Translations under genes and position numbers: made by a program
Source: Pseudomonadota bacterium
GTDB lineage: Bacteria > Myxococcota_A > UBA796 > SXON01
Reading direction: 5' to 3'
Assembly: GCA_039800105.1 (NCBI GenBank)
Contig: JBDLRI010000078.1
Coordinates: 6,469 to 70,468, forward strand
Length of the DNA stretch: 64,000 bases
In this document: positions 1,736-58,399 of the stretch, piece by piece
How the letters are laid out: every line of letters starts with the position of its first letter
Numbering within the stretch: position 1 is the stretch's first letter
The notes under the pieces: generated by a model
Told to the model about the DNA's origin: nothing
What the model saw: the letters and a program-made list of their open reading frames with translations, nothing else
The model's database searches: none

Positions 1736-1775
1736 CTGGGGCGGAGGGGGCCGGCCCCCTCCGCAACGCCTCCCC
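1736..1775 (-). repeat. G/C hairpin repeat, short form, copy A (intergenic)
   Basis: CTGGGGCGGAGGGGGCCGGCCCCCTCCGCAACGCCTCCCC, containing the 24-nt perfect palindrome GCGGAGGGGGCCGGCCCCCTCCGC. Confidence 0.85.
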
Positions 1776-5090: not shown

Positions 5091-7133
5091 ATGGGCGTCG
5101 CGTGGCTCGTCGGGCTGGGGTGGCTTGCGGCGTGCGGCACCCCGTCGCCGTCCGGGCCCCCGGCCCTCGACGCCTACGCGGCGCGCGGGGCGCCCGTGAC
5201 GGCGGCGCGGTGGGAGGGTCCGTGGCGCGTGCAGGTGTTGGCGCGAACCCCCGGGGAGCCCGATGTGCAGGCGTTCGCCGAGGTGCTCGGCGCGCCCGTC
5301 GTGGCGTGGGACGGCGCGCGACTGACCCCGCCGGTGGGCACGGCCGCCCTCGTATGGGTGGCTTCCGAGGCCGACGCGGAGCGGGTTTCCGCGGCTGGCG
5401 TCGCCGCCGGGGGCGGCGAGGGTGTGGCGGTGTTGTCCGCGACGTTCAGGTCTGGGGCGGGGGGCCGCAGCCCCCCGCAACGCCCCCCGCCGGACGCGGA
5501 CGCGAAGCCCGCGCGGGAGGTCTGGGCGGCGCGGCTCGCGTGGGCCGGTCTCGGGGTGGTGGATGCGGGGGCCGAGCTCGGCCTGTGGGCGGATCCGGCG
5601 TGGGCGGATTCGCACCCGGCGCGGGCGGCGCAGGCCGCGGCGTTCGCGGTCGCGTCGCACTACGCGGTGCCCGCGCGACCGGTGCCGGTGGACGACGACG
5701 TTCCGGCGGGCCTCGCGGAGCACCTGGCGGGCGCGGACGCCGAGGATGTGACCTCGGGCGATCCGCGACGCCGGGCGGCAGCTGCCGGCGATGCCGCGTC
5801 CGTGTGGGCCGCGACCGATCCGGATCCCGCGGTGCGCCTTGCGCTCGCGGCATCCGCGCGGGATCCCGCCGTGCGCGCGCGCCTCTCCCGGGACGCCGAC
5901 GCGCTGGTGCGCGCGCGTGCGCTCGACGGGTTGGACGATCCCGCGCTGCTGGCCGAGTCGCTCTCCGACGGCTCCAGCTTCGTGCGCGTCGTGGCCGTGG
6001 CGCGGTTGGCGGAGCTCTCCCGCGCGGGGAGCACCGCGCCGCAGGTGGAGGCCGCCCTCTCCGCGGCCAGCGGCTCCCCCGACGCTTACGTGCGCTGGAA
6101 GGCGGCGTCCGGTCTGCGTGACGTCGCGCGGCTCGCGGCGCTGCTGGCGGGGGATGCGGACGCGGATGTGCGCCGGGAGGCCGCGCGGCGCCTCGGCGTG
6201 CTCGGGGACCCTGCGGGGGCCGCTGCGCTCGTCGCTGCGACGCACGACCGCAACAGCTTCGTCCGCCGATGGGCGGCCGCCGCGCTCGGGCGGGTGCCGA
6301 CCCCCGACGCGGAGGCGGCCCTGCGCCGGGCCGCGGAGGACCCTACGGCGTTGGTGGCGGCCGCGGCCGCAGACGCCCTGCGGGCGCGCGGCGTGCCCAT
6401 GCCCGTGCGTCCGCCGTGGCGGCCGCCCGGCCCGCCCGAGGATGACGCGGCGCTCGATTCGCTGCTGGCCAGCCCGGATGCCACCGCGCGCAAGGACGCC
6501 GCGAAGTTTACGGTCGGTCGCCCGGGCGCGGTGGCGCGACTCGCGGCCCTGCGGTCGGACCCCGACAGCGAGGTGCGCAAGGCGGCGATGGAGGCCCTCG
6601 GGCGCGGGGCGTCGGAGGCGGACCGCCCCGCCCGCCTGGCGGCGTTGCGGCCCGGGCTGGACGATCCGGACGTGGATGTGCGTGTCACGACGCTGTCGTC
6701 CTACGCGGCGCTCGGGCGTGTCCCCGAGGACGCGCGCGCGCGGGTCGTGGCGCTCGCGGGGGATCCCGACACGGAGCTGCGTCTCCGGGCGGTGGAGGCG
6801 CTCGCCGCGGATCCGGACCTGCCGCCCGCCCTGCTTCCCGTGACGGACCCCGACGAGCGCGTACGGGCCGCCATCGTGGGACGCCTCCCCGCGCGCCTCG
6901 ACCCGGCGGAGCCGTGCGTGCTGGTCCGCCGCGCGGCGGGGCGCGGCACGGGAATCCTCGATGCCCCGGGGGACGACCCGCACCGTCGCGCCTGGTCCGC
7001 CGGGCGGCTTCACGACCTCGATCGGCTCGTCCACGCACGGTTCTCCTGGAACCTTCCGGAGGACCTGCCGCCGAGCCACCGCGCGCTGCGCCCGCCGGTC
7101 GTGCGCGCCTTCGGCCACCCCGACGAGGGGTGA
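5091..7133 (+). CDS. HEAT-repeat (PBS-lyase type) lipoprotein
   Basis: ATG 5091 inside ORF 4287..7133; lipobox MGVAWLVGLGWLAAC. Many DPxVR...AL..LGD repeats. Hairpin repeat copy 5452-5488 is read in frame. Confidence 0.65.
   Translation: MGVAWLVGLGWLAACGTPSPSGPPALDAYAARGAPVTAARWEGPWRVQVLARTPGEPDVQAFAEVLGAPVVAWDGARLTPPVGTAALVWVASEADAERVSAAGVAAGGGEGVAVLSATFRSGAGGRSPPQRPPPDADAKPAREVWAARLAWAGLGVVDAGAELGLWADPAWADSHPARAAQAAAFAVASHYAVPARPVPVDDDVPAGLAEHLAGADAEDVTSGDPRRRAAAAGDAASVWAATDPDPAVRLALAASARDPAVRARLSRDADALVRARALDGLDDPALLAESLSDGSSFVRVVAVARLAELSRAGSTAPQVEAALSAASGSPDAYVRWKAASGLRDVARLAALLAGDADADVRREAARRLGVLGDPAGAAALVAATHDRNSFVRRWAAAALGRVPTPDAEAALRRAAEDPTALVAAAAADALRARGVPMPVRPPWRPPGPPEDDAALDSLLASPDATARKDAAKFTVGRPGAVARLAALRSDPDSEVRKAAMEALGRGASEADRPARLAALRPGLDDPDVDVRVTTLSSYAALGRVPEDARARVVALAGDPDTELRLRAVEALAADPDLPPALLPVTDPDERVRAAIVGRLPARLDPAEPCVLVRRAAGRGTGILDAPGDDPHRRAWSAGRLHDLDRLVHARFSWNLPEDLPPSHRALRPPVVRAFGHPDEG
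5452..5488 (-). repeat. G/C hairpin repeat, short form, copy B (inside the HEAT lipoprotein CDS)
   Basis: CTGGGGCGGGGGGCCGCAGCCCCCCGCAACGCCCCCC, read in frame as ...GAGGRSPPQRPP. Confidence 0.85.
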
Positions 7134-7148
7134 GCACCGATCCGGCCC

Positions 7149-7188
7149 GGGGGCGTTGCGGGGGGCGGGCCAAGCCCCCCGCCCCAGG
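7149..7188 (+). repeat. G/C hairpin repeat, short form, copy C (between convergent genes)
   Basis: GGGGGCGTTGCGGGGGGCGGGCCAAGCCCCCCGCCCCAGG. 9-bp stem GCGGGGGGC/GCCCCCCGC. Lies between stops at 7133 (+) and 7197 (-). Confidence 0.85.
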
Positions 7189-11175: not shown

Positions 11176-12798
11176 ATGCTCCTCGCGCTCCTCCCTGCCG
11201 CGCTCGCCCAGGCACCCGGTCCCACCGCGGGCCTGGCGGGCGGCATGCAGATCATGACGGAGACCAACCCTGTGCTGGGGGGAGGGCAGGCGACGGTGCG
11301 CGTGGGGGCCACCGTCGTCTCCGCGTTCGACCTCGAGGCGGAGGTCGGTCGGCTGGAGGGTGCCACCCGTGACCTGGGTTTCGGCTACTGGACGCTGTCG
11401 CCGCGCCTGAACGCCCTCGTGCACCTGACGCCGGATTCGCGCGCGGACCTCTTCTTCACGTTCGGCGGCGGGATGCAGTACGTCGAGGTCCGGCGTCCCA
11501 GCCGCGCGGACCAGCCCGATGACCGCGACCGCGCGCTCTACCGCAACCCGAGCTGGGACTGGGTGGCCGTGGCGGGGCCGGGCCTCACGCTGCACCTGGC
11601 CGGGCCGGTGCACCTGCGGACGGATGTGCGCTGGTACGGAACCTTCGGCGCCGACGCCACCAACGCGCGCCCCGACACCTTCTCCCAGCTGGAATGGACC
11701 GCTGGGCTCGACTTCCGGGCCGAGGCGCCCGCGGATCGCGATCAGGACGGCATTCCCAACCGGGACGACGCCTGCCGCGACGAGCCCGAGGATCGGGACG
11801 GGTTCGAGGATTCCGATGGCTGTCCCGATGGCGACAACGACGGCGACGGCGTCATGGACGGTATCGACCGCTGCCCGGACGACCGCGAGGACCGGGACGG
11901 CTTCCAGGATCGGGACGGCTGCCCCGACCCGGACAACGATCAAGACGGCATCGCGGATGTGCGCGATTCCTGTCCCGAGGACCCGGAGGACCGGGACCGC
12001 TTCCAGGACAAGGACGGCTGTCCCGAGCCGGACAACGACGACGACGGCATCCTCGACGCCCGGGACCGCTGCCCGGGGGAGGCGGAGGACCGGGATGGGT
12101 TCGCGGACCGGGACGGATGCCCGGAGCGGGACAACGACCTCGACGGCTTCGCGGACGGCGTCGACACATGTCCGGACGAGCCGGAGACGGCGAACGGGTT
12201 CCAGGACTCGGACGGCTGCCCCGACGAGGTCCCGCGCGAGGTCAAGCGCTTCACCGGGGTGATCCGCGGCATCACCTTCGAGACGCGCAGCGACACGATC
12301 CGGCCGTCCTCCGAGTTCACCCTCCAGGAGGCCCTGTCGGTGCTCGAGGAGTACCCCGACGTGCGCCTGGAGGTGGAGGGCCACACCGACGACGTGGGCG
12401 ACGACGCCTTCAACCTCGAGCTCTCGGATCGGCGCGCGCATGCGGTGGTGCGCTGGTTCGTGGAGCACGGAGTCGACCCGGTGCGTTTGCAGGCGCGTGG
12501 CTACGGCGAGACCCGCCCCCTCGCGGAGAACGATTCCGATGCCGGGCGGGCCGAGAACCGCCGCGTGGAGTTCCGGTTGCTGCAGGCGGAGCGACCGCCC
12601 GTGGAGCCCGAGTTCCCGACGCCGGAGGAGGTGCGTCCCACGCCGGTGCCCAACGCGCTCGGCATCATCGAGGTGCCGTCCACGCCGATGGACTTCGACG
12701 AGGAGCCGACGCGCTCCCCGGACGTGCCGGGCAAGGACGTCGAGCCGGGCGAGGAGGACGAGGCGCCGCCCCCTCGCCGCCGTCCGAGCTACCCGTAG
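11176..12798 (+). CDS. OmpA-family outer-membrane protein with thrombospondin type-3 repeats
   Basis: About 11 D-x-D-x-DG..D..D.CP calcium-binding repeats (nt ~11740-12235). Then the OmpA-C motif LEVEGHTDDVGDDAFNLELSDRRAHAV...NRRVEFRLL. Confidence 0.9.
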   Translation: MLLALLPAALAQAPGPTAGLAGGMQIMTETNPVLGGGQATVRVGATVVSAFDLEAEVGRLEGATRDLGFGYWTLSPRLNALVHLTPDSRADLFFTFGGGMQYVEVRRPSRADQPDDRDRALYRNPSWDWVAVAGPGLTLHLAGPVHLRTDVRWYGTFGADATNARPDTFSQLEWTAGLDFRAEAPADRDQDGIPNRDDACRDEPEDRDGFEDSDGCPDGDNDGDGVMDGIDRCPDDREDRDGFQDRDGCPDPDNDQDGIADVRDSCPEDPEDRDRFQDKDGCPEPDNDDDGILDARDRCPGEAEDRDGFADRDGCPERDNDLDGFADGVDTCPDEPETANGFQDSDGCPDEVPREVKRFTGVIRGITFETRSDTIRPSSEFTLQEALSVLEEYPDVRLEVEGHTDDVGDDAFNLELSDRRAHAVVRWFVEHGVDPVRLQARGYGETRPLAENDSDAGRAENRRVEFRLLQAERPPVEPEFPTPEEVRPTPVPNALGIIEVPSTPMDFDEEPTRSPDVPGKDVEPGEEDEAPPPRRRPSYP

Positions 12799-14621: not shown

Positions 14622-15026
14622 ATGGCCTACAGCGACAAGGTCGTCGACCACTACGAGAACCCCCGCAACGTCGGCTCGCTCGACAAGAACGCCGAGGACG
14701 TCGGCACCGCCATGGTGGGCGCGCCCGCCTGCGGCGACGTCATGAAGCTCCAGCTGCGGATCAGCGACGACGGCATCATCGAGGATGCAAAGTTCAAGAC
14801 CTTCGGCTGCGGCTCGGCGATCGCGAGCAGCTCGCTCGTCACCGAGATGGTGAAGGGCCGCACGATCGACGATGCGCTGCAGATCCGCAACAGCGACATC
14901 GCGCAGGAGCTGAACCTCCCGCCGGTGAAGATCCACTGCTCGGTGCTCGCCGAGGACGCCGTGAAGGCGGCCATCGCCGACTACAAGGCCAAGCGCGCCG
15001 CGCGCGCGGCCGGGGCCGCGGAGTAG
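14622..15026 (+). CDS. iscU: Fe-S cluster scaffold IscU
   Basis: MAYSDKVVDHYENPRNVG, GAPACGDVMKL, FKTFGCGSAIASSS, LPPVKIHCSVLAEDA: all three cluster-ligand Cys motifs are present. Confidence 0.95.
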   Translation: MAYSDKVVDHYENPRNVGSLDKNAEDVGTAMVGAPACGDVMKLQLRISDDGIIEDAKFKTFGCGSAIASSSLVTEMVKGRTIDDALQIRNSDIAQELNLPPVKIHCSVLAEDAVKAAIADYKAKRAARAAGAAE

Positions 15027-15028
15027 CC

Positions 15029-15367
15029 ATGGCCATCGAGCTGACCGAGCCCGCCGTCGCGCGCGTGCGGGAGCTGGCGCTGAAGCGTCAGACCCCCGAC
15101 GCGTTCTTCCGCATCGGCATCCGCGGCGGAGGCTGCTCGGGGCTGTCCTACTTCGTCGATTTCACCGAGGCCGCCGACCCGAAGGACAAGGTCTTCGAGT
15201 TCGGCGCCGAGGACGCGCGCGTGCGCGTCGTCATCGACCGCAAGAGCTACCTCTTCCTCAACGGTACGCAGGTGGACTGGAAGAGCGGCCTGATGAAGAC
15301 GGGGTTCGAGTTCTACAACCCGCTGGCCGGAAAGACCTGCAGCTGCGGCGACAGCTTCTCGGTCTGA
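15029..15367 (+). CDS. iscA: A-type Fe-S carrier IscA/HesB
   Basis: 112 aa with GGGCSG and C-terminal CSCGDSF motifs. ATG lies 2 nt after the iscU stop. Confidence 0.9.
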   Translation: MAIELTEPAVARVRELALKRQTPDAFFRIGIRGGGCSGLSYFVDFTEAADPKDKVFEFGAEDARVRVVIDRKSYLFLNGTQVDWKSGLMKTGFEFYNPLAGKTCSCGDSFSV

Positions 15368-15386
15368 CGGCCGCGCGGAGGGACGG

Positions 15387-15941
15387 GTGAGCTGCTGGGC
15401 GTGCCATGAACCCGTCACCGGGCGCGCATGCGTGGGGTGCGGCGCGCTGCAGCCGCCCCCGCCGCACCCCGACCCCTTCGTCGTGTTCGGTCTCGCGCCC
15501 CGCTGGCACCTCGACCTCGCCGACCTGGATGCGCGGTGGAAGGCCCTGGCGCGACAGGTGCATCCCGACCGATTCGCGGGCCGCCCCGCCGCCGAGCGTC
15601 GCCTCGCGCTCGCGTGGACCGCGGCGATGAACGAGGCCCGCCGGCTGCTGCGCGACCCGACCCGTCGCGCGTGGTGGCTCGCCACGGGTGCCCCGGAGGC
15701 CCCGCAGACCGGCGCGCGCGTCGACCCTGCCTTCCTCGCCGAGGTGTTCGCCTGGCGGGAGGCCGACGAGGAGGAGCCCGGCGCCTTCGCCCGCCTGTCC
15801 GCCGCGCGCCGTGCCGCGCTCGAAGCCGAGCTGGACACGGTCTTCACCGCGTGGGAGGAGGGCGACGGCGCGCTCGAGGCGGTTCCCTCGCTGCTCCACC
15901 GTCTTCAGACCCTGAAGGGCCACGCGCCTGGAGTTTCCTGA
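15387..15941 (+). CDS. hscB: J-type co-chaperone HscB with N-terminal tetracysteine extension
   Basis: J-domain with an HPD motif (QVHPDRF) in isc operon context. N-terminus CWACHEPVTGRACVGC is CX2CX8CX2C. Confidence 0.85.
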   Translation: MSCWACHEPVTGRACVGCGALQPPPPHPDPFVVFGLAPRWHLDLADLDARWKALARQVHPDRFAGRPAAERRLALAWTAAMNEARRLLRDPTRRAWWLATGAPEAPQTGARVDPAFLAEVFAWREADEEEPGAFARLSAARRAALEAELDTVFTAWEEGDGALEAVPSLLHRLQTLKGHAPGVS

Positions 15942-15942
15942 C

Positions 15943-17826
15943 ATGGCAGCCAACATCGGCATCGACCTCGGGACCACCCACAGCCTCGTGGCCGTCGTGC
16001 TCGGCGGGAAGGCGCGCTGCCTGCTGGACGAGACCGGCGACGCGCTGCTCCCGTCCGCCGTGCGGGTGGAGGACGACGGCACGCTGGTGGTGGGGCGCGC
16101 CGCGCGGGACGAGGCGGCGGCGCACCCGGGCCGCACCTTCACCAGCACGAAGCGCTTCATGGGCCGCGCGCCCGCGGACTGCCGCGAGGACGCCGCGCGC
16201 CTGCGCGCCACCCTCGACGAGGCCGAGGGCCGCTTCGTGCGGTTCCGCGCGGGGTCGCGCACGATCACGCCGGTGGAGGTCGCGGCGGCGGTGCTCAAGA
16301 CGCTGCGGGCGCGTGCGGTGGAGTGCCTCTTCGGAGAGCCGGGCGGCGCGGTGATCACGGTGCCGGCCTACTTCGACGACGCCCAGCGGCAGGCCACGAA
16401 GGACGCGGCGCGCCTCGCGGGCCTCGAGGTCCTGCGGCTGCTCAACGAGCCGACCGCGGCCGCGGTGGCCTACGGGCTGGACGCGCGCGCAAGCGGCCGC
16501 TTCGCCGTCTACGACCTCGGCGGCGGCACCTTCGACGTGAGCATCCTCGAGCTGGACGACGGCATCTTCCAGGTGCTCGCGACCGCCGGCGACACCCACC
16601 TCGGTGGGGACGACTTCGATCGCCTCGTCGCGGAGCACCTCCGCAGCGCGCTCGGGCTCGGCGACCTCGACGACTCCGCGCATCGGGCGCTCCTGCAGGC
16701 CGCCGAAGCCGCCAAGCGCCGCCTTGGGGAGGCGGACGCGACCGAGGTGGCCTTCGCGGGGCGCAGCTGCACGCTCACGCGGGAGACCTTCGACGCGCTC
16801 GTGGCACCGGTTCTGGCCCGCACCGGCGACGCCGCGCGCCAGGCACTGGGCGATGCCGGCCTGACGGCCGATCAGCTCGACGCCGTGGTGCTCGTCGGCG
16901 GGTCCACCCGCGCCCCCGTGGTGCGCCGCTACGTGGAGGGGCTGTTCGGGCGTGCGCCCCGCTGCGACCTCGACCCGGATCAGGTCGTGGCGCTCGGCGC
17001 GGCCATGCAGGCGGACATGCTCAGCGGTGCGGCCTCCATGGCCGATGACATGCTGCTGCTCGACGTGATCCCGCTGTCGCTGGGGCTGGAGCTCATGGGC
17101 GGCGTGGTGGAGAAGTTCATCCCGCGCTGCTCGACCATTCCCGTCAGCGCGCACCACACCTTCACGACCCACGTGGACGACCAGACCAGCATCGACCTGC
17201 ACGTGGTCCAGGGCGACCGCGAGCTGGCGCGCGACAACCGCTCGCTCGCGCGCTTCCGCCTCGCGGGGCTTCCGCCCCTGCCGGCCGGGGTGCCGCGCGT
17301 GCGCGTGGAGTTCACCGTGGACGCCGACGGGCTGCTCACCGTGTCCGCGCGGGAGGAGTACACCGGCCTCGAGACGCGGGTGGACGTGCGCCCCAGCTAC
17401 GGCCTCTCCGAGGAGGAGATCGAGCGCATGCTCGAGGACAGCATCGACCACGCCGAGGACGATGTCGAGGCGCGCATGGCCATCGAGGCGCGCGTGGAGG
17501 CCGAGGGCATCCTGGCGGCGCTGGACAAGGCGCTGGCCACCGACCGCGCCCTGCTCGAACCCGGCGAGGAGGAACGCGTGGTGCAGGTCGCCGAGGCGCT
17601 CCGCGCCGCGCTTCCGGGCTCCGACCGCGCGCGCGTGCGGGAACTCTCGCAGGAGCTCGACGCCGTGACCGCGCCGTTCGCGCAGCGGCGCATCGAGCGG
17701 GATCTGACCCGCGCCCTGTCCGGCCGCGACGCGCTCGCGGTGGACGCCGAGCTGGCCTCCCGGGCCGCGTCGGCCGGGGGCGTTGCGGGGGGTGGCCAGC
17801 CCCCCGCCCCAGGCGCAGGAGCCTGA
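15943..17826 (+). CDS. hscA: Hsp70-type Fe-S chaperone HscA
   Basis: MAANIGIDLGTTHSLVAV, DLGGGTFDVS, and the Hsp70 ATPase and substrate-binding layout. The last ~17 codons are encoded by hairpin repeat copy 17776-17813. Confidence 0.93.
   Translation: MAANIGIDLGTTHSLVAVVLGGKARCLLDETGDALLPSAVRVEDDGTLVVGRAARDEAAAHPGRTFTSTKRFMGRAPADCREDAARLRATLDEAEGRFVRFRAGSRTITPVEVAAAVLKTLRARAVECLFGEPGGAVITVPAYFDDAQRQATKDAARLAGLEVLRLLNEPTAAAVAYGLDARASGRFAVYDLGGGTFDVSILELDDGIFQVLATAGDTHLGGDDFDRLVAEHLRSALGLGDLDDSAHRALLQAAEAAKRRLGEADATEVAFAGRSCTLTRETFDALVAPVLARTGDAARQALGDAGLTADQLDAVVLVGGSTRAPVVRRYVEGLFGRAPRCDLDPDQVVALGAAMQADMLSGAASMADDMLLLDVIPLSLGLELMGGVVEKFIPRCSTIPVSAHHTFTTHVDDQTSIDLHVVQGDRELARDNRSLARFRLAGLPPLPAGVPRVRVEFTVDADGLLTVSAREEYTGLETRVDVRPSYGLSEEEIERMLEDSIDHAEDDVEARMAIEARVEAEGILAALDKALATDRALLEPGEEERVVQVAEALRAALPGSDRARVRELSQELDAVTAPFAQRRIERDLTRALSGRDALAVDAELASRAASAGGVAGGGQPPAPGAGA
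17776..17813 (+). repeat. G/C hairpin repeat, short form, copy D (inside the hscA 3' end)
   Basis: GGGGGCGTTGCGGGGGGTGGCCAGCCCCCCGCCCCAGG, read as GGVAGGGQPPAPG, 11 nt before the hscA stop. Confidence 0.85.
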
Positions 17827-17828
17827 AC

Positions 17829-18242
17829 ATGGCCGGGCGGAACCCCTACCTGACGGCGCCGGACGCGCCGGTCGCCACGCGGCCCTTCTCCATCGTCGTG
17901 GTCGGCGACGACGGCGAGCTGCGCGTCGACGTCGATCCGTCGACCCTGCCGAACGACGAGCCGGGGCTGCCCGGGAGCGTGCTGTCCATCCTGCTCGCGG
18001 CGGGGCTGGACGTGGAGCACGCCTGCGGCGGCGTGTGCGCCTGCTCGACCTGCCACGTCTACGTCGAGGCCGGCGGCGCGCGCTGCAACGAGGCCAACGA
18101 CGACGAGGCCGACATGCTCGACACGGCCCCGGCCCTTCGCGCCACCTCCCGCCTGGCGTGCCAGTGCGTTCCGGATGGCGGCGCCGACCTGCGCGTGCGC
18201 ATCCCCCGCTGGAACCGCAACGCGGTGCGGGAGCACGGGTAG
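17829..18242 (+). CDS. fdx: ISC-type [2Fe-2S] ferredoxin
   Basis: CGGVCACSTCH...LACQC adrenodoxin-type Cys pattern. Starts 2 nt after the hscA stop. Confidence 0.88.
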   Translation: MAGRNPYLTAPDAPVATRPFSIVVVGDDGELRVDVDPSTLPNDEPGLPGSVLSILLAAGLDVEHACGGVCACSTCHVYVEAGGARCNEANDDEADMLDTAPALRATSRLACQCVPDGGADLRVRIPRWNRNAVREHG

Positions 18243-18271
18243 CGTCTCTCCCTCCGGGCGGTCGGGTCGGA

Positions 18272-19972
18272 CTACCCCGGGCGCCACCAGCGCAGGCGTC
18301 CCCGGCCGCCCTCCGTCCAGCCGCGCAGGGCGCCCTCGACGCAGGTGACGTAGGTGGGCGCGCGCGCGACGTAATGCGTGTCGAGCACCACCTCCGACAC
18401 GCCGAGCCGCGCGAGCGCGGCGGCGATCGTGGCGGGCGTCGCGTCCGGCGCGCGTCCCTGCTCGCATGCCACGAACGCCTGCAAGGCGGGATCGCCCGAC
18501 CACGCGCGCAGCTCCGCGGCCGGGGCGCGTGGATCCAGCAGCGGGCGCAGACCGGCCACCAGGGGGCGGCCGTGGTGGAGCTGGTCCACGAGGTCGCCCC
18601 GGTCGGTGCGCAGGCGGCCGCCGGGCGCGGGGAGGAGCACGAGCGGGCCGGCACGCTCGGCCAGCGCGTCGGCCAGCGGTGTGCGCACGAGCGGGATCGC
18701 CTGCACCGGAAGGCTGGGCGACAGCGCCGCGGCCTCCCCGGCGAGGCCGCCCACCGCCAGCACCGTGAGCACCGTGCGCAGGCGCGCCGGGACCAGGGCG
18801 ACGCAGGCACCGGCCAGAAGCCCGACGCCGCCCCACGCGACGAGCCAGGCGTGGTCGCTCCACCAGCATCGTGCGAGCACGGGCACGCGCAGCAGCAGGC
18901 CCGCCGGTGTGAGGACCGGGCCGGGAAGCACCGCGCCCACCCCCCACGCCGCGCCCACGCCCAGCAGGGAGGCCGGGACCAGGACGGCGCGCGGGGCGTT
19001 CCGGCGGTACGCCAGCGCGAGCGCCGCAGCCGCGAGCAGCCACGCGGTCGGGCGGAGCAGGGACGCCGCCACGACACCCCGCTTCCCCCACAGCTCGTCC
19101 GCGACGAGATCCACGGGGCGCACCGGCGCCATGTCGATGGGGAGCGGCGCGAACGGATCGGCTCCCAGCGCGGGCACGGCCGTGGCGTGGGACACCACCC
19201 AGGCCGCGAGGGGGGCCACGATCGCGGCGAATCCCGCCAGGCCGCTCCACATGGCGCCGGTCTCCCGCGGCGTACGGGGCCGCGCGAGCAGCCAGGGCAG
19301 CGCCACGGCCAGGACGGCGGGCACCGCGAGGTTCGGGTCGGTCCCCGCGGCCAGCCCGCACGTGACCCCGGCGCATGCCGCCCGGATGGGCACCCCGCGT
19401 CCGCCGGCCGGAGCGCATCGCGCCTCCCACGCGAGCCAGGCGGCCGTGATCGCCAGTCCTGCCGCGAGCAGCACGTTCGTGCGTCCCGCGGCGAGGTGGC
19501 GCAGCGTGGGCTCGCCGGCCATCCACGTGGCCGCGGCGACGAGGGCGGCGCGCGTCCGCCCGTGCCAGCGGAGCGCCCACGCGGCGATCGCGGCGCTTCC
19601 AAGCCAGCCGACGAGCACGGACAGCGCCCATTCACCGCGCGCCAGCCCGAGCGCCGCCACGAGCGGGGCGCCCAGCACGGCATCGAGCGGAAGGCCCGCG
19701 TCGACGAGGTGATCGCCGCGCGTCGGGAAGCCGTGGAAGCCGTCGGCGAGCCAGCCCTCGGCACCGCGCGCGTACCAGCCTGCACGCAACGCCAGGCCCA
19801 CGATCGCGTCGGGAAGCCGCCCATCGCCGGGCAGGGCGTCCATCCGCAGGGCACGGGGCGCGCGCAGCAGCACCTGGGCGGGGCCCAAGAGCAGCAGGAG
19901 CGCCACGCCCCCACGGGTCCAGGCGGCCGGCGCAGGGAGGCGTCCGGGCCCTCCGTCGTGTCGCGGGCTCAT
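18272..19972 (-). CDS. polytopic membrane protein with soluble C-terminal domain (possible GT-C-type glycosyltransferase)
   Basis: ATG 19972 (MSPRHDGG...) inside ORF 18272..20656. About 12 hydrophobic segments followed by a ~150-aa soluble tail. ATGA overlap with the upstream cca. Confidence 0.5.
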   Translation of the reverse strand: MSPRHDGGPGRLPAPAAWTRGGVALLLLLGPAQVLLRAPRALRMDALPGDGRLPDAIVGLALRAGWYARGAEGWLADGFHGFPTRGDHLVDAGLPLDAVLGAPLVAALGLARGEWALSVLVGWLGSAAIAAWALRWHGRTRAALVAAATWMAGEPTLRHLAAGRTNVLLAAGLAITAAWLAWEARCAPAGGRGVPIRAACAGVTCGLAAGTDPNLAVPAVLAVALPWLLARPRTPRETGAMWSGLAGFAAIVAPLAAWVVSHATAVPALGADPFAPLPIDMAPVRPVDLVADELWGKRGVVAASLLRPTAWLLAAAALALAYRRNAPRAVLVPASLLGVGAAWGVGAVLPGPVLTPAGLLLRVPVLARCWWSDHAWLVAWGGVGLLAGACVALVPARLRTVLTVLAVGGLAGEAAALSPSLPVQAIPLVRTPLADALAERAGPLVLLPAPGGRLRTDRGDLVDQLHHGRPLVAGLRPLLDPRAPAAELRAWSGDPALQAFVACEQGRAPDATPATIAAALARLGVSEVVLDTHYVARAPTYVTCVEGALRGWTEGGRGRLRWWRPG

Positions 19973-40690: not shown

Positions 40691-42961
40691 ATGCACGTGG
40701 TCCAACTCCTCACCCTGCTGCTCGGGTGCAGCAACGACGTCGCCGGCAAGCCGGACGGTCCCACCTTCGAGCAGGACACGGGCACGGCGCCGGTCGACAG
40801 CGGCCCCGTCGTGGACGACACCTGCGACACGCCGCCGTCCGGCGGCACCACGTCGCGCGACACGAACTGCATGTACGCGCCCTCGGCGGGCGGCGCCTTC
40901 TCGCCGCGCGTGGAATGGTCCATGGCGCACGCCGTGGTGGACCCCGCCACCGGCGCGGCCATCCCGGCCTACGACTTCTCCTACGCGCCGGAGATGACCG
41001 GTGTCTTCCAGGCACCCGCGGTCGGTCAGGCGACGGATGACAACGGAAACGGCCAGATCACGTCCGGCGACATCCCGGACATCGCCGTGCTGATGGGCGT
41101 GGAGCCGGAGACCGAGATCGCCGACGTGCTCGGGGTCACCGAGGCCCGGACGTGGTCCGTGCTGCGGCTGCTCTCGGGAGACGGCCGAAAGGTCCACGCG
41201 TCGATCGACTGGCTCCCGTGGGCGGACGACGTGGTGGCGCCGTTCCTCTACGCCGGCGTGGCCATGGCGGACGTGGACGCCGACGGCCGCATGGAGATCG
41301 CGACCCTGGTCACCCGCTTCTCCGACGGCACGTGCTCCCCCGGCCTGTACGAGGTCGCCTGGAACGGGGACGTGACGCTCGAGAGCGTCGGGGACACCGC
41401 CGTGTGGTGCCAGCAGGGCACGGGATGGGACGGCTACCGCGGCGCCCACGCGCCCGCGCTCGCCGATCTCGACGGGGACGGCGTGGTCGAGGTCATCTTC
41501 GGGCGCCAGGTCTTCGAGGCGGACACGCTCGCGCTCGCCTGGGCCGGCACGGCGGGCCGCGGCAACTACAACACGCTGGAGCACGGGTCGTCCGGCTACT
41601 GGAACTCGGGCTACCACTCCTTCGCCTACGACATGGACGGGGACGGCGTGGACATGGAGGTCGTCGCCGGCCGTACCGTGTACCGCAACGACGGCACCGT
41701 CTACTGCGAGCTCGGCCGCAACGGATCGGGGGGCTGGGTCGCCGCCGAGGACGGCTACGCCGCGGTCGCCGACTTCGCGCGGTTCTCCGGAGACATGCTC
41801 GGAGAGCCGGAGATCGTCATCACCGGGAACCAGTACGTGAGCGTCTACCGCGGGAAGCCGGACGCGAACGGGCGGTGCGCGGAGTTCGGGCGGGTGGCCA
41901 ACAACCCCTACGCCACCTCGCTCGGCAACCAGCTTCCGGACCACCCCAACTGCAACACCTCGCGCAAGGCCTTCGGTGGCCAGCCGACCATCGCCGACTT
42001 CAGCGGCGACGGCACGCGGGACGTCGCGGTGTCCGGCGCGTGCTGGTACACGGTGTTCGACGTCACGGCGAGCGGTCTGACGCCGTACGCGATCGCGCCG
42101 ACGCGCGACTGGTCGAGCGCGTCGACGGGCTCGACCGTGTTCGACTTCAACGGGGACGGTGTGAACGAGATCGTCTACGCGGACGAGGAAGCGCTTCGCG
42201 TGTGGCAGATCGACACCACGGCCGGCCTGGACCCCTGGGAGCGTCTCCAGGCGGTGCTCACCGACACCAACCACGGCTCGTGGACGATCCACGAGTACCC
42301 GCTGGTGGCGGACCTCGACGGGGACGGCAAGGCGGAGATCCTCGTGGCGAACGCGCCGCGTTGGGACGCCACCACGTCCAGCGTGTACACGGAGTACGGG
42401 CTGTACGCGCTCGGCGCCGCCGATGACGATTGGGTCAGCGCGCGCCAGGCCTGGAACCAGCACGCCTACTACGTGACCAACGTCGAGGACGACGGCACCG
42501 TCGGCTACGGGCTTCCGAACTACGCGCCGTTCTCGACCTCGAACCTGAACTCGTTCCGGCTCCAGGCCCCCGGTGCCTACGGCTCCAAGGTGGCACCGGA
42601 CCTGGTGGCGACGGCCGAGACCTGCCGGGCCGACTGCGACTCGCCGCTGCAGGTGTGGGTGAGCGTGGCGAACCAGGGTGCCTACGTGACGGCGGGCTCC
42701 GGGACGAAGGTGAGCCTCTACGGCGAGCAGGGCAACACCCGGACGCTGATCGGCAGCCAGGACCTCCCGCGCGACGCCACCCCCGGGGACATCCTTCCGG
42801 CCCTGGTGTTCGAGGTGACCGACCCCGCGCGCTTCGACCGCCTCGTCGCGGTGGTGGACGACCCCGCCGCCGGCAGCGGCAGCGACGCCTGGGGCAGCGC
42901 CAAGGAGTGCGACGAGGGCAACAACGAGGTCGTCGTCAGCCTCTCCACCGACTGTCCGTAG
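40691..42961 (+). CDS. FG-GAP/VCBS-repeat lipoprotein with C-terminal CARDB-like domain (paralog 1)
   Basis: GAGG RBS and lipobox LLTLLLGCS. Repeats ADVDADGRMEIA, ADLDGDGVVEVIFG, YDMDGDGVDMEVV, ADFSGDGTRDV, FDFNGDGVNEIVY, ADLDGDGKAEILV. WNQHAYYVTNV motif; ends KECDEGNNEVVVSLSTDCP. Confidence 0.85.
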   Translation: MHVVQLLTLLLGCSNDVAGKPDGPTFEQDTGTAPVDSGPVVDDTCDTPPSGGTTSRDTNCMYAPSAGGAFSPRVEWSMAHAVVDPATGAAIPAYDFSYAPEMTGVFQAPAVGQATDDNGNGQITSGDIPDIAVLMGVEPETEIADVLGVTEARTWSVLRLLSGDGRKVHASIDWLPWADDVVAPFLYAGVAMADVDADGRMEIATLVTRFSDGTCSPGLYEVAWNGDVTLESVGDTAVWCQQGTGWDGYRGAHAPALADLDGDGVVEVIFGRQVFEADTLALAWAGTAGRGNYNTLEHGSSGYWNSGYHSFAYDMDGDGVDMEVVAGRTVYRNDGTVYCELGRNGSGGWVAAEDGYAAVADFARFSGDMLGEPEIVITGNQYVSVYRGKPDANGRCAEFGRVANNPYATSLGNQLPDHPNCNTSRKAFGGQPTIADFSGDGTRDVAVSGACWYTVFDVTASGLTPYAIAPTRDWSSASTGSTVFDFNGDGVNEIVYADEEALRVWQIDTTAGLDPWERLQAVLTDTNHGSWTIHEYPLVADLDGDGKAEILVANAPRWDATTSSVYTEYGLYALGAADDDWVSARQAWNQHAYYVTNVEDDGTVGYGLPNYAPFSTSNLNSFRLQAPGAYGSKVAPDLVATAETCRADCDSPLQVWVSVANQGAYVTAGSGTKVSLYGEQGNTRTLIGSQDLPRDATPGDILPALVFEVTDPARFDRLVAVVDDPAAGSGSDAWGSAKECDEGNNEVVVSLSTDCP

Positions 42962-55644: not shown

Positions 55645-57788
55645 TGGGGGTGATGTGGACCCTCCTCCTTCTCGCGTGCAGCGACTACAACATCCAGAAC
55701 CGCCCTCCCGGAAAGGTCACCGAGGAGACGGACACGGGCTTCACCGTCGACACGGACGTGACCGAGGAGACCCAGGTGTGCCGCAACACCTGGACCACCA
55801 TGGCGGATGGCGTGTCCACGGACGAGGGCTGCACCCGCGAGCCGGTCGACGTGCCGCTCAGCACGCGCTTCGTCTGGGACAAGCCGTCGTGGGGGCAGTA
55901 CCCCGAGTACGGCCAGGCGCTCGTCACCCCGGTGGTCGGTCGCCTGGTGGATGAGAACGGCAACGGCACCACGGCCGATGATCCGGTCTACATCGCCGTC
56001 GTGACCGATGACGGCGTGCTGGACCGCCGGGACACGCACGGCGTCGTGCGCATGGTGCGCGGTACCGACGGGAACGAGTACCAACGGCCGGCGATCTACC
56101 GCATCGACACGCCGACCCAGCAGGTCTACCCCTACCGCTACTCCGGTCTCGCCCTCGGCGATGTCGACGGGAACGGCATTCCCGACATCGTCGGCATCGC
56201 GGAGGTGTTGGAGAACACCGGGACCGACACGGCCGGCGGCACCGACACGACCACGGACACGGGCACCGACACCGGCACCGACAGCGGTCCTCCGGACATT
56301 CCCGTGCGTCCGACGGGCATGTACGGGCGCGGCGGGTCGGGCGGCGGTTCCGGCGGAGGCTCCGGCGGGGGCACCGGCGGGGGCGATGCTCCGCCTCCGC
56401 CGTGTCGCGTCGTGGCGTGGACCAGCGAGGGAGAGCTGCTGTGGGTGGCGAACGACGCACCGCGCACCTGCGCGGGGGATGTCCCCGCGCTCGCCGATCT
56501 CGAGAGTGACGGCACCGTGGAGGTGATCGTCGGCGCGACGATCGTGGAGGGCGCCACGGGCGCCGTGCGCATCGTCGGCACGGCCGGCCAGGGGCGACAC
56601 CAGGCCTTCACCCAGATCGGCGCCATCAGCGTCCCCGCGGATCTCGAGGGCGACGGATTCATGGAGATCGTCACCGGCAACACCATCTACGAGCACAACG
56701 GTGTGGTGCGCTGCCAGACCGGCACGGACGACGGGTTCCCTGCCGTGGCTGACCTCGACGGGGACGGCACGGGGGACGTCGTGGCGGTCGGAAACGGCCA
56801 GATGCGCCTCTTCAAGCACGACTGCGCGCCGCTCGCCTCCTGGCCGCTCGGCGCTCCGGAGGCCGTGCAGAACGGCGGTCCTCCCACCGTCGCGGACTTC
56901 GACGGGGACGGCACGCCCGAGATCGGGGCGGCGTCGGCCACGATCTATGCCGTATTCGAGGTGGACGGGAGGATGCTCTGGTCCAACGACATCGTCGACG
57001 CCATCAGCTTCACCGCGGGTTCGTCGGTGTTCGACTTCGACGGCGACGGTCGCGCGGAGGTGGTCTACGCCGACGAGACGAGCCTGTGCATCTGGGACGG
57101 GGCGGACGGGCACGTCCGGTTGCAGGACCCCTACCATGCGTCGCGCACCCTGCACGAATACCCGGTGGTGGCCGACGTCGACGATGACGGGGAAGCCGAG
57201 CTGATCGTGCCCAATGGCGGCAACCACTACGGCGATCCGCGGCAGGGGCTCTACGTCCTGGAGAGCGCCACCACCCCGTGGCCGGCCGCGCGACCGGTGT
57301 GGAACCAGCATGCCTACAACATCGTCAACGTGAATGACGACCTCAGCATCCCGTCCCATCCACTCCCGAACTGGCCGAGCCACAACAGCTTCCGCTCCGC
57401 GGACATGATCCCGGTCTCGGCCGGCCGTTTCCCGGATGCCGTGGCGATCGTGGCGGTGTGCACCGAGGGCTGCGCCGAGTACGGGCAGATCGTGGTGGGC
57501 GTGAAGATCGCCAACGGAGGGACGTCGGACGTGCCCGCGGGTCTGAACGTGGCGTTCTACCTGGGGGACGAGGCGCTCGGGATCCCCCCGGTGCTCCACG
57601 AGCTGCGCACCCTTCCGAACGCCATCGCGCCGCGCGAGGCGAGCGACGTGATGGAGTTCACCGTCGACGCCATCGACGCCCTGCAGGGCATGCGCGTCGT
57701 GGTGGACGACGACGGGACCGGCGTGGGGGCGCTGTACGAGTGCCACGAGGAGAACAACCCGGCGTCCGTGTTCGGTCAGTGCCCCTGA
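55641..57788 (+). CDS. FG-GAP/VCBS-repeat lipoprotein with C-terminal CARDB-like domain (paralog 2)
   Basis: Lipobox WTLLLLACS. Repeats GDVDGNGIPDIV, ADLESDGTVEVIVG, ADLEGDGFMEIV, ADLDGDGTGDVV, ADFDGDGTPEI, FDFDGDGRAEVVY, ADVDDDGEAELIV. WNQHAYNIVNV motif; ends YECHEENNPASVFGQCP. Confidence 0.85.
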   Translation: MMGVMWTLLLLACSDYNIQNRPPGKVTEETDTGFTVDTDVTEETQVCRNTWTTMADGVSTDEGCTREPVDVPLSTRFVWDKPSWGQYPEYGQALVTPVVGRLVDENGNGTTADDPVYIAVVTDDGVLDRRDTHGVVRMVRGTDGNEYQRPAIYRIDTPTQQVYPYRYSGLALGDVDGNGIPDIVGIAEVLENTGTDTAGGTDTTTDTGTDTGTDSGPPDIPVRPTGMYGRGGSGGGSGGGSGGGTGGGDAPPPPCRVVAWTSEGELLWVANDAPRTCAGDVPALADLESDGTVEVIVGATIVEGATGAVRIVGTAGQGRHQAFTQIGAISVPADLEGDGFMEIVTGNTIYEHNGVVRCQTGTDDGFPAVADLDGDGTGDVVAVGNGQMRLFKHDCAPLASWPLGAPEAVQNGGPPTVADFDGDGTPEIGAASATIYAVFEVDGRMLWSNDIVDAISFTAGSSVFDFDGDGRAEVVYADETSLCIWDGADGHVRLQDPYHASRTLHEYPVVADVDDDGEAELIVPNGGNHYGDPRQGLYVLESATTPWPAARPVWNQHAYNIVNVNDDLSIPSHPLPNWPSHNSFRSADMIPVSAGRFPDAVAIVAVCTEGCAEYGQIVVGVKIANGGTSDVPAGLNVAFYLGDEALGIPPVLHELRTLPNAIAPREASDVMEFTVDAIDALQGMRVVVDDDGTGVGALYECHEENNPASVFGQCP

Positions 57789-57799
57789 GCACGACCGGC

Positions 57800-58399
57800 G
57801 TGCGGCGTCTCCTCCCGCTCGCGCTCCTGCTTTGCGCGATGCCCGCGCGGGCCGAGCCGACCGAGACGGACCGCCCGTACGCGGGCCACGGCGCCCTGAC
57901 CCTCGGCGCCGAGACGCTGACGCTGAACGGTCGACGGATCGTGGACGCGCGCGGCGGCGTGCTGGTGGATCGCCTGCTCGGACCCCCGGTGTCGCGGGCG
58001 GACGTCCTTTGCGCGGCGGACGAGGGTGCCGACGGCCTGGGGCAACTCCGCTGCTGGAACGCGCGGCGGGAACCCGTCACGCTCGCCGTGGGCGGTCGAC
58101 CCAGCCGCCTCGCGCTCGGAGGCACGCACCTGGCGTGGGTGGCCTCGCCGGGCGGCATTCCGCAGGTGTTCGTCGCGCCGCTGGACGGACACGCGGCCCC
58201 GCGGAGCCTCACGAACGTCGCGGTCGTGGCCGCGCGGGGGGAGGCGTTGCGGAGGGGGGCCGGCCCCCCTCCGTCCCCGACCCCCGGGAAGCCACCCCCG
58301 GGGTTCGTCCCGCCCCCGCTGCGCCAGTCACTGCGTTTTGACGGGGACATGCTGCGGTGGGAGGCCCAGGACGGCCACCACGAGGCGCGCTGGCGATGA
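57800..58399 (+). CDS. hypothetical secreted protein
   Basis: GTG 57800 (or 57779); signal peptide VRRLLPLALLLCAMPARAEP. Hairpin repeat 58236-58279 is read in frame. ATGA overlap with the M23 gene. Confidence 0.5.
   Translation: MRRLLPLALLLCAMPARAEPTETDRPYAGHGALTLGAETLTLNGRRIVDARGGVLVDRLLGPPVSRADVLCAADEGADGLGQLRCWNARREPVTLAVGGRPSRLALGGTHLAWVASPGGIPQVFVAPLDGHAAPRSLTNVAVVAARGEALRRGAGPPPSPTPGKPPPGFVPPPLRQSLRFDGDMLRWEAQDGHHEARWR
58236..58279 (+). repeat. G/C hairpin repeat, short form, copy H (inside the CDS at 57800-58399)
   Basis: GGGGGAGGCGTTGCGGAGGGGGGCCGGCCCCCCTCCGTCCCCG, nearly identical to the reverse complement of copy A; read as RGEALRRGAGPPPSP. Confidence 0.85.

Follow-up and report, generated by a model that had tools for sequence, protein, structure and literature searches.

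We analyzed the 3' end of hscA, the gene for the iron-sulfur (Fe-S) assembly chaperone HscA, in a stretch of 64,000 nt from contig JBDLRI010000078.1 (assembly GCA_039800105.1, positions 6,469 to 70,468 of the forward strand), which is called the window throughout. The gene belongs to an isc operon and is directly followed by fdx, which encodes a ferredoxin. The last codons of hscA contain one copy of a short hairpin repeat that occurs all over the genome. Our analysis indicates that this copy was most probably inserted in frame, as 13 codons, into a C-terminal tail that was already variable, and that the stop codon downstream of it is the ancestral one. The features at issue are the following:

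15943 to 17826, plus strand: hscA, encoding the Fe-S assembly chaperone HscA (627 amino acids; stop codon TGA at 17824-17826), assigned from the open reading frame (ORF), its translation, and the family model TIGR01991
17728 to 17775, plus strand: lineage-typical C-terminal extension of HscA, residues 596-611 (DALAVDAELASRAASA), delimited with the tails of 120 homologues, the alignment to 1U00, and an AlphaFold model
17776 to 17813, plus strand: hairpin repeat copy of 38 nt, read here as inserted, with five G residues (G5), a CGTT tag, an 8-bp stem (GCGGGGGG/CCCCCCGC), the loop TGGCCAG, and the tail CCCAGG
17814 to 17826, plus strand: putative ancestral hscA end, consisting of the last base of codon 624 followed by GCA GGA GCC TGA, and overlapping the Shine-Dalgarno (SD) sequence AGGAG of fdx (17817-17821)
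17829 to 18242, plus strand: fdx, encoding an ISC-type 2Fe-2S ferredoxin (137 amino acids; TIGR02007, E = 1.6e-23)

HscA matched TIGR01991 with 770 bits, compared to a curated cutoff of 708.6, and the match covered residues 5-595. This full-length match in an isc operon, adjoining hscB and fdx, identifies the protein as a member of the family. The score of the ferredoxin against TIGR02007 was below the curated cutoff of that model. The fdx start codon ATG is fixed by the conserved N-terminus M.G(K/R)NPY, and in relatives the same coding start comes after the hscA stop. In the window, 2 nt separate the hscA TGA from the fdx start. A rough gene call based on codon usage gave the operon order regulator, iscS, iscU, iscA, hscB, hscA, fdx, and the Pfam labels along an orthologous contig agree with this order. 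The operon is intact, as had been assumed in the original prediction, which was made from the sequence alone.

The repeat copy lies within the last 51 nt of hscA and reads GGGGG CGTT GCGGGGGG TGGCCAG CCCCCCGC CCC AGG (17776-17813), followed by GCA GGA GCC TGA. It forms a hairpin with a perfect 8-bp G:C stem and a 7-nt loop, starts with the first base of codon 612, and encodes residues 612-624 (GGVAGGGQPPAPG). The C-terminus of HscA including the repeat reads AGGVAGGGQPPAPGAGA. Both the position of the copy and the encoded peptide had been correctly predicted. Over tag, stem, and tail, the copy fits the consensus of the repeat family described below. RNA folding of the element alone yielded -24.9 kcal/mol. 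Neither the element nor its context folds better than dinucleotide shuffles (z values between -0.04 and -0.95, with z = -0.04 for the 101-nt context); this test is powerless for sequences consisting only of G and C, and the complementarity of the stems across copies is the better evidence. Since four additional proteins, encoded on other contigs and from other sources, have the same tail, an assembly artefact is unlikely.

The genome to which the window belongs (G000) is a 3.6-Mb, 160-contig Myxococcota metagenome-assembled genome with 73% GC and a completeness of 88.7%. The 13-mer GGGGCGTTGCGGG occurs seven times in the window, compared to 0.85 expected occurrences, and 350 times in the genome. 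We searched the genome for the anchor GGGGCGTTGCGGGG, allowing at most one mismatch, and required a stem of 6 bp or more after it. This search identified 627 copies with anchor and hairpin, about one per 5.7 kb, which are 35-42 nt long and have stems of 6-13 bp. According to the flank profiles, the conserved unit is composed of about 2-5 G, CGTT, GC-stem, loop, stem-GC, and CCCAGG(A). Of the 627 copies, 568 carry the tag CGTT and 15 the tag CGTC. We found 151 distinct stem arms. Because the other arm carries the complementary base at 713 of 802 non-G stem positions (a proportion inflated by the search, which tolerated at most one stem mismatch), the hairpin is a property of the whole repeat family. 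In 549 of the 627 copies, none of the six frames contains a stop codon. A sub-family of about 173 copies has an A in the stem (GGAGGCGTTGCGGAGGGGG...CCCCCTCCGC), and its 3' arm changes in step (for example window 1736-1775 and 58236-58279). The anchor, located at 17777-17790 in the window and present in all copies, is mirror-symmetric, that is, it has the same letters backwards without complementing. The backwards-pattern control of our genome searches is therefore void.

A search of window 15000-19000 against Rfam gave no match at E values up to 1. Likewise, no Y1 transposase (PF01797), the type to which the transposases associated with repetitive extragenic palindromic (REP) sequences (RAYTs) belong, was detected in G000, where a completeness of 88.7% leaves its absence unproven; the same search, which covered the Y1 type only, was positive in six control genomes. 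Exact 14-mer counts were 316 in G000 and one in the only other genome of the genus, compared to 43-403 in five genomes of genus g9 of the same family and, outside the family, 80 in one genome. This patchy distribution among the relatives (G001-G040) suggests independent expansions or transfer.

We compared the window protein with its 120 best HscA homologues (59-80% identity), drawn from 5.8 billion proteins. The peptide GGVAGG..PPAP is present in all five members of the window's 90% cluster and in none of the 120 nearest homologues. At the DNA level, we examined 30 orthologous loci for a hairpin of at least 7 bp with the repeat sequence in the hscA tail and found it in the window only, with nothing comparable in the other 29. 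No hscA repeat copy is present in L032, L033, and 28 other orthologous loci. The expectation that relatives lack the repeat was thus borne out, and the tail indeed holds a hairpin repeat that is spread genome-wide. In a maximum-likelihood tree calculated from the protein core of HscA with the tails removed, the repeat-bearing proteins P0001 and P0124 form a pair (support 100/100) that is sister to the repeat-free proteins P0009, P0002, P0003, and P0004; the six-member group is supported by 100/99. P0005 and P0008 are outgroups in this tree, and P0008 matches the HscA of a genome from the same genus. Because the repeat-bearing pair is placed beside a repeat-free clade, the repeat is a derived feature that arose on the branch towards the window's lineage. 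Only the window's species cluster and a sister lineage with 89% nucleotide identity carry the insertion.

We then asked how many residues of the tail can be attributed to the repeat. The NCBIfam models for HscA stop at residue 595-596. The alignment to the substrate-binding domain of E. coli HscA (1U00) ends with ALSGR, four residues short of the chain end, and about 31 residues of the window protein lie beyond the E. coli-type end. HscA orthologues of the Myxococcota have a conserved stretch, RDA..VG..LG[ML][KR], past the E. coli end, followed by 0 to about 30 variable residues. The counterpart of this stretch in the window is RDALAVDAELASR, and 20 residues come after it. The VG..LG[ML]K motif lies in a degraded form within residues 596-611, which also hold the first part of the old variable tail. 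Past LG[ML][KRQN], the sister clade and the outgroups have tails of 2-11 residues (EKS, DKPLAEAGGEA, ERAAPAGEA, DRETASAATEA, TPPTEA, ES); an example of a complete repeat-free tail is LGLKDKPLAEAGGEA. Subtraction of the 13 repeat codons from the 20 residues in the window leaves seven, which fits these repeat-free tails, and we therefore conclude that the repeat adds about 13 residues. AASA before and AGA after the repeat segment also match the older tail length. It had been proposed that the repeat together with its flanks adds about 20 residues: the tail is indeed longer than that of orthologues, but only the 13 residues GGVAGGGQPPAPG are repeat-derived.

The clade motif VG..LG[ML]K is degraded to VDAELASR at window 17746-17763 (HscA residues 602-607), and this is the case in the repeat-bearing lineage only. 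The decay may mean that constraint on the tail was relaxed on the branch on which the insertion occurred. In an AlphaFold2 model of HscA built with 50 homologues (mean predicted local distance difference test score, pLDDT, of 83), the last lid helix spans residues 562-592 and is followed by a short helix from 597 to 611 (block pLDDT about 78-80). Residues 614-627 have pLDDT values below 50 and form coil without secondary structure. The repeat-encoded segment is thus predicted to be a disordered extension outside the fold.

The hscA-fdx junction was compared in the same way. Repeat-free relatives have the hscA end GGAGGCCTGAGATG, with L032 and L033 ending in GGAGGCC TGA G ATGGCGGG. The window ends in GGAGCC TGA AC ATGGCCGG, and L031, the contig of GCA_013565555.1 that encodes P0124, ends in GGAGCC TGA CC ATGGCGGG. 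The last codon GCC, the stop TGA, the SD sequence GGAG of fdx, and the 7-nt spacer between SD sequence and ATG are common to the window and its repeat-free relatives. Over the 30 orthologous loci, the distance from the hscA stop to the fdx start ranges from an overlap of 11 nt to a spacer of 2 nt. Because the stop and the tight junction are shared with repeat-free relatives, the stop context is ancestral and the frame was preserved. The original prediction had the repeat lead into the present TGA and rewrite the 3' end of the gene. The comparison does not support this: the insert ends 10 nt upstream of the ancestral stop, and the junction is shared. "The same stop" denotes here a conserved type of junction rather than strict positional identity.

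The start of fdx (MRGRNPYL) is located 11 nt inside hscA, in the +1 frame, in genus g2 (L016, L018-L021). The HscA tails of this genus extend about 22-34 residues past LGL, and their last four codons overlap the fdx start. We considered these long tails as further hairpin repeats but rejected them, since they represent overlaps with fdx.

Taken together, we regard an in-frame insertion of 13 codons into an existing variable tail, with the ancestral stop retained, as quite likely. According to this explanation, a REP-like, CGTT-tagged, G/C-rich hairpin repeat would have been inserted into the short, variable, and unstructured tail of HscA in the common ancestry of the window's species and its sister lineage. 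The inserted unit would comprise 38-39 nt, equivalent to 13 codons, and end 10 nt before the ancestral stop. With the frame kept, translation would continue through GGVAGGGQPPAPG into the old last codons (..GA) and the old TGA, and the ribosome-binding site of fdx would remain unchanged. Since then, the copy would have been kept as a tolerated, probably neutral extension of a disordered tail. As hscA and fdx lack an intergenic space, a repeat at the 3' end of the gene could persist there only as an in-frame coding insert. Direct reading of the other two frames past the insert revealed no stop nearby, so a frame-shifting insertion would run HscA into fdx and would presumably be lost.

A number of points weigh against this explanation. 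The nearest repeat-free orthologues are only 75-80% identical, and the tails cannot be aligned base by base. The empty site and the exact boundaries of the insertion are therefore deduced and not seen. An in-frame gain would be 39 nt, 1 nt more than a 38-nt unit accounts for, and the spacer between TGA and ATG is 2 nt in the window versus 1 nt in the sister clade. In addition, the conservation of the copy is ordinary, since 12% of the 38-nt windows of hscA have at most one difference between the window and L031. The lengths of the family members do not help to define the inserted unit: multiples of three dominate among both internal (58%) and intergenic copies (53%) and are uninformative in this respect.

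An insertion that is read by the ribosome is a common event in this genome. Our census relied on a home-made codon-usage caller, which made 3072 gene calls with 94% coverage and is somewhat generous. By these rough calls, about 35% of the copies lie inside ORFs, and about 165 are ORF-internal with both flanks coding in the same frame. Another count gave 66 copies that lie entirely within the 3'-terminal 60 nt or less of an ORF; a local six-frame check was passed by 57 of them. Many of the repeat-derived tails end with GGVAGG.PPAP, in a frame identical to that of the hscA copy. The notion that a gene end built from a repeat is unusual can therefore not be maintained, with about 57 genes ending in the repeat and about 165 ORF-internal copies in this genome alone. 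Moreover, REPs and Rickettsia palindromic elements (RPEs) within genes and at COOH-termini have already been described (PMC3733652; PMC10969869).

The translated copies do not use all frames equally. The Cys-containing frame GRCGG (Cys/Arg) is depleted, with eight uses versus 70 and 74 in the other same-strand frames, and this scarcity fits a filter on the encoded peptide. On the opposite strand, the frame ..PPQRPP is also rarer inside genes (15 versus 73 and 59). With respect to gene ends, 165 of the 627 copies start 0-20 nt past the stop codon of a gene call, and 120 of these 165 are antisense to the gene concerned. Another 29 copies, including the one in hscA, form a second peak with starts 40-60 nt before the stop. 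The TGA of a convergent gene is often located only a few nucleotides from the AGGA end of the repeat (...CCCCAGGA..TCA), for example at window 5452-5488 and 7149-7188.

The accumulation of copies just behind stop codons is relevant for the alternative that the repeat landed past or across an older hscA stop, or shifted the frame, in which case the last ~20 residues and the TGA would be new. A stop near such a copy could later vanish; LG[ML]K has indeed been degraded to LASR in the window's lineage, and the TGA is 1 nt off relative to the fdx ATG when compared with the sister clade. But the relatives offer no intergenic space between hscA and fdx in which a repeat could land. GCC, TGA, the GGAG motif, and the 7-nt spacing to the ATG are all found in repeat-free relatives, and the tail length after removal of 13 codons agrees with the sister clade. 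We consider this scenario unlikely.

The age of the in-frame copy can be bracketed by comparison with L031 over a syntenic block of 7.4 kb. The hscA genes of L031 and the window share 88.9% identity and differ synonymously in 143 codons and non-synonymously in 38; L031 carries its repeat copy at the same position in hscA with a single synonymous change in the loop. Because the same copy is present at the same place, the insert predates the split between the two lineages. The conservation between the window and L031 gives no indication of selection for or against the hairpin. A second, reverse-oriented copy is located at L031:5308-5356, between the fdx stop and a convergent gene, whereas window 18243-18271 represents the empty site. 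The length difference at this post-fdx site is about 36 nt for a 34-nt copy. Since this copy is present in L031 and the site is empty in the window, copies have been gained or lost since the split. With the contig L034, synteny begins only at window 11133, so that only the hscA copy and the post-fdx site could be compared.

A further possibility is that the hairpin was recruited for a function in the mRNA, where it might tune the hscA:fdx ratio by protecting the upstream message or by translation coupling. In the latter case, translation of fdx would need ribosomes that finish hscA and melt the stem 6 nt upstream of the fdx SD sequence. The stable hairpin (see its folding energy above) ends 3 nt before this SD sequence, with the paired stem at a distance of 6 nt; the stems are unchanged in a lineage with 89% nucleotide identity, and an action of REPs on mRNA stability is known (background in PMC3733652). 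This conservation is, however, within the normal range of hscA, the 101-nt context folds no better than its shuffles, and there is no terminator-like T-run. Furthermore, the same repeat sits at hundreds of unrelated places, and its AGGA end shows no enrichment of downstream starts. We therefore judge a recruitment of the hairpin to be very unlikely. Similarly improbable in our view is a more general variant, in which the pile-up within 20 nt of stops would result from insertion or retention directed to 3' ends, with dozens of copies translated as C-terminal tails, and a translated hairpin would couple fdx to completed hscA translation at tight junctions.

Two specific roles were tried as well. 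An intrinsic terminator or attenuator between hscA and fdx was rejected, since the hairpin is followed by CCCAGGCGCAGGAG without a T-run and 17400-18500 contains no terminator-like site. The AGGA(G) end of the repeat was rejected as a source of SD sequences: a credible start follows 46 copies versus 65 on the control side, and the SD sequence of fdx is ancestral.

That the tail is ordinary ancestral coding sequence resembling the repeat, or an assembly chimera at a repeat, is extremely improbable and already contradicted: G/A/P-rich tails are common in genomes with 73% GC and some other Myxococcota HscA tails are P/A-rich (L018, L030), but the copy fits the family consensus over tag, stem, and tail, was found in no other homologue, and the same junction recurs in a second lineage as well as on independent contigs of other origin.

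Repeats of a different kind were noted elsewhere in the window. A gene of the OmpA family (11176-12798) contains four to five tandem 99-nt (33-amino-acid) Asp/Gly-rich repeats (DNDGDG...) at 11732-12226, which by their appearance may be thrombospondin-type-3-like calcium-binding repeats. Two paralogous genes at 41464-42502 and 56495-57350 have multiple DxDGDG repeats (FG-GAP/VCBS-like) with a shared nucleotide identity of 60-77%.

The in-frame copy in hscA provides a clean, datable case of a short hairpin repeat that was absorbed by a conserved housekeeping gene, probably without harm. For annotation, it implies that a G/A/P-rich C-terminal tail in this lineage is often derived from a repeat and is not to be taken for a functional motif. 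The case is also one data point on the persistence of REP-like elements where operons lack intergenic space. As such events are already known from REPs and RPEs and occur frequently in this genome, no new question is opened by it.

Like E. coli-type REPs and bacterial interspersed mosaic elements (BIMEs), the hscA copy is a stable hairpin transcribed between two cistrons of an operon, and it could affect the stability of the upstream mRNA or the translation of the downstream gene. In contrast to these elements, the hairpin lies inside coding sequence and would be unwound by every translating ribosome, and no RAYT was found. The family comprises about 627 copies, each 35-42 nt long, in 3.6 Mb; it is a short, high-copy palindrome and thus a REP in the broad sense. 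This also applies to its location mostly downstream of coding regions, although about 35% of the copies are inside ORFs. It differs from the GTAG REP/REPtron system, as the consensus GGGGG-CGTT-GC... has no GTAG at either end and no cognate RAYT (PF01797) was detected in the 88.7%-complete genome. The CGTT tag is one base off the tag of CGTC-tagged REPs, to which the family is therefore similar without being a member by the letter of the definition.

Short tagged REPs are mostly found downstream of ORFs, but some overlap gene ends or sit wholly inside ORFs of known proteins, and CGTC-tagged REPs have no dedicated transposase (Di Nocera et al. 2013; PMC3733652). The family described here resembles the GTAG- and CGTC-tagged REPs in being a short (~40 bp) stem-loop of high copy number whose stem carries a conserved 4-nt tag at one end, and in lying mostly just downstream of coding regions, with some copies overlapping or inside ORFs and translated (PMC3733652). 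The PF01797 search, which covered transposases of the Y1 type, found none in this genome. Unlike in usual REPs, the translated fraction is much higher, about one third of the copies by rough gene calls. The host is an uncultured Myxococcota lineage, and "Myxococc" has no text match in Di Nocera et al. (2013).

The RPEs of Rickettsia are palindromic inserts that are found in frame in many unrelated protein-coding genes (Ogata et al. 2000, as summarized in PMC10969869). RPEs are about 100-150 bp long and have a conserved peptide and one preferred frame. By comparison, the hscA copy has 38 nt, the family members have 35-42 bp, and five of the six frames are commonly used. The copies of this repeat also lie mostly at the 3' ends of genes rather than within the gene body. 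The hscA copy nevertheless resembles RPEs in the following: it is an in-frame palindromic insert in an intact gene with repeat-free orthologues, the host protein scores above the equivalog cutoff with frame and stop kept, and the insert is translated as an extra peptide segment compatible with the protein fold.

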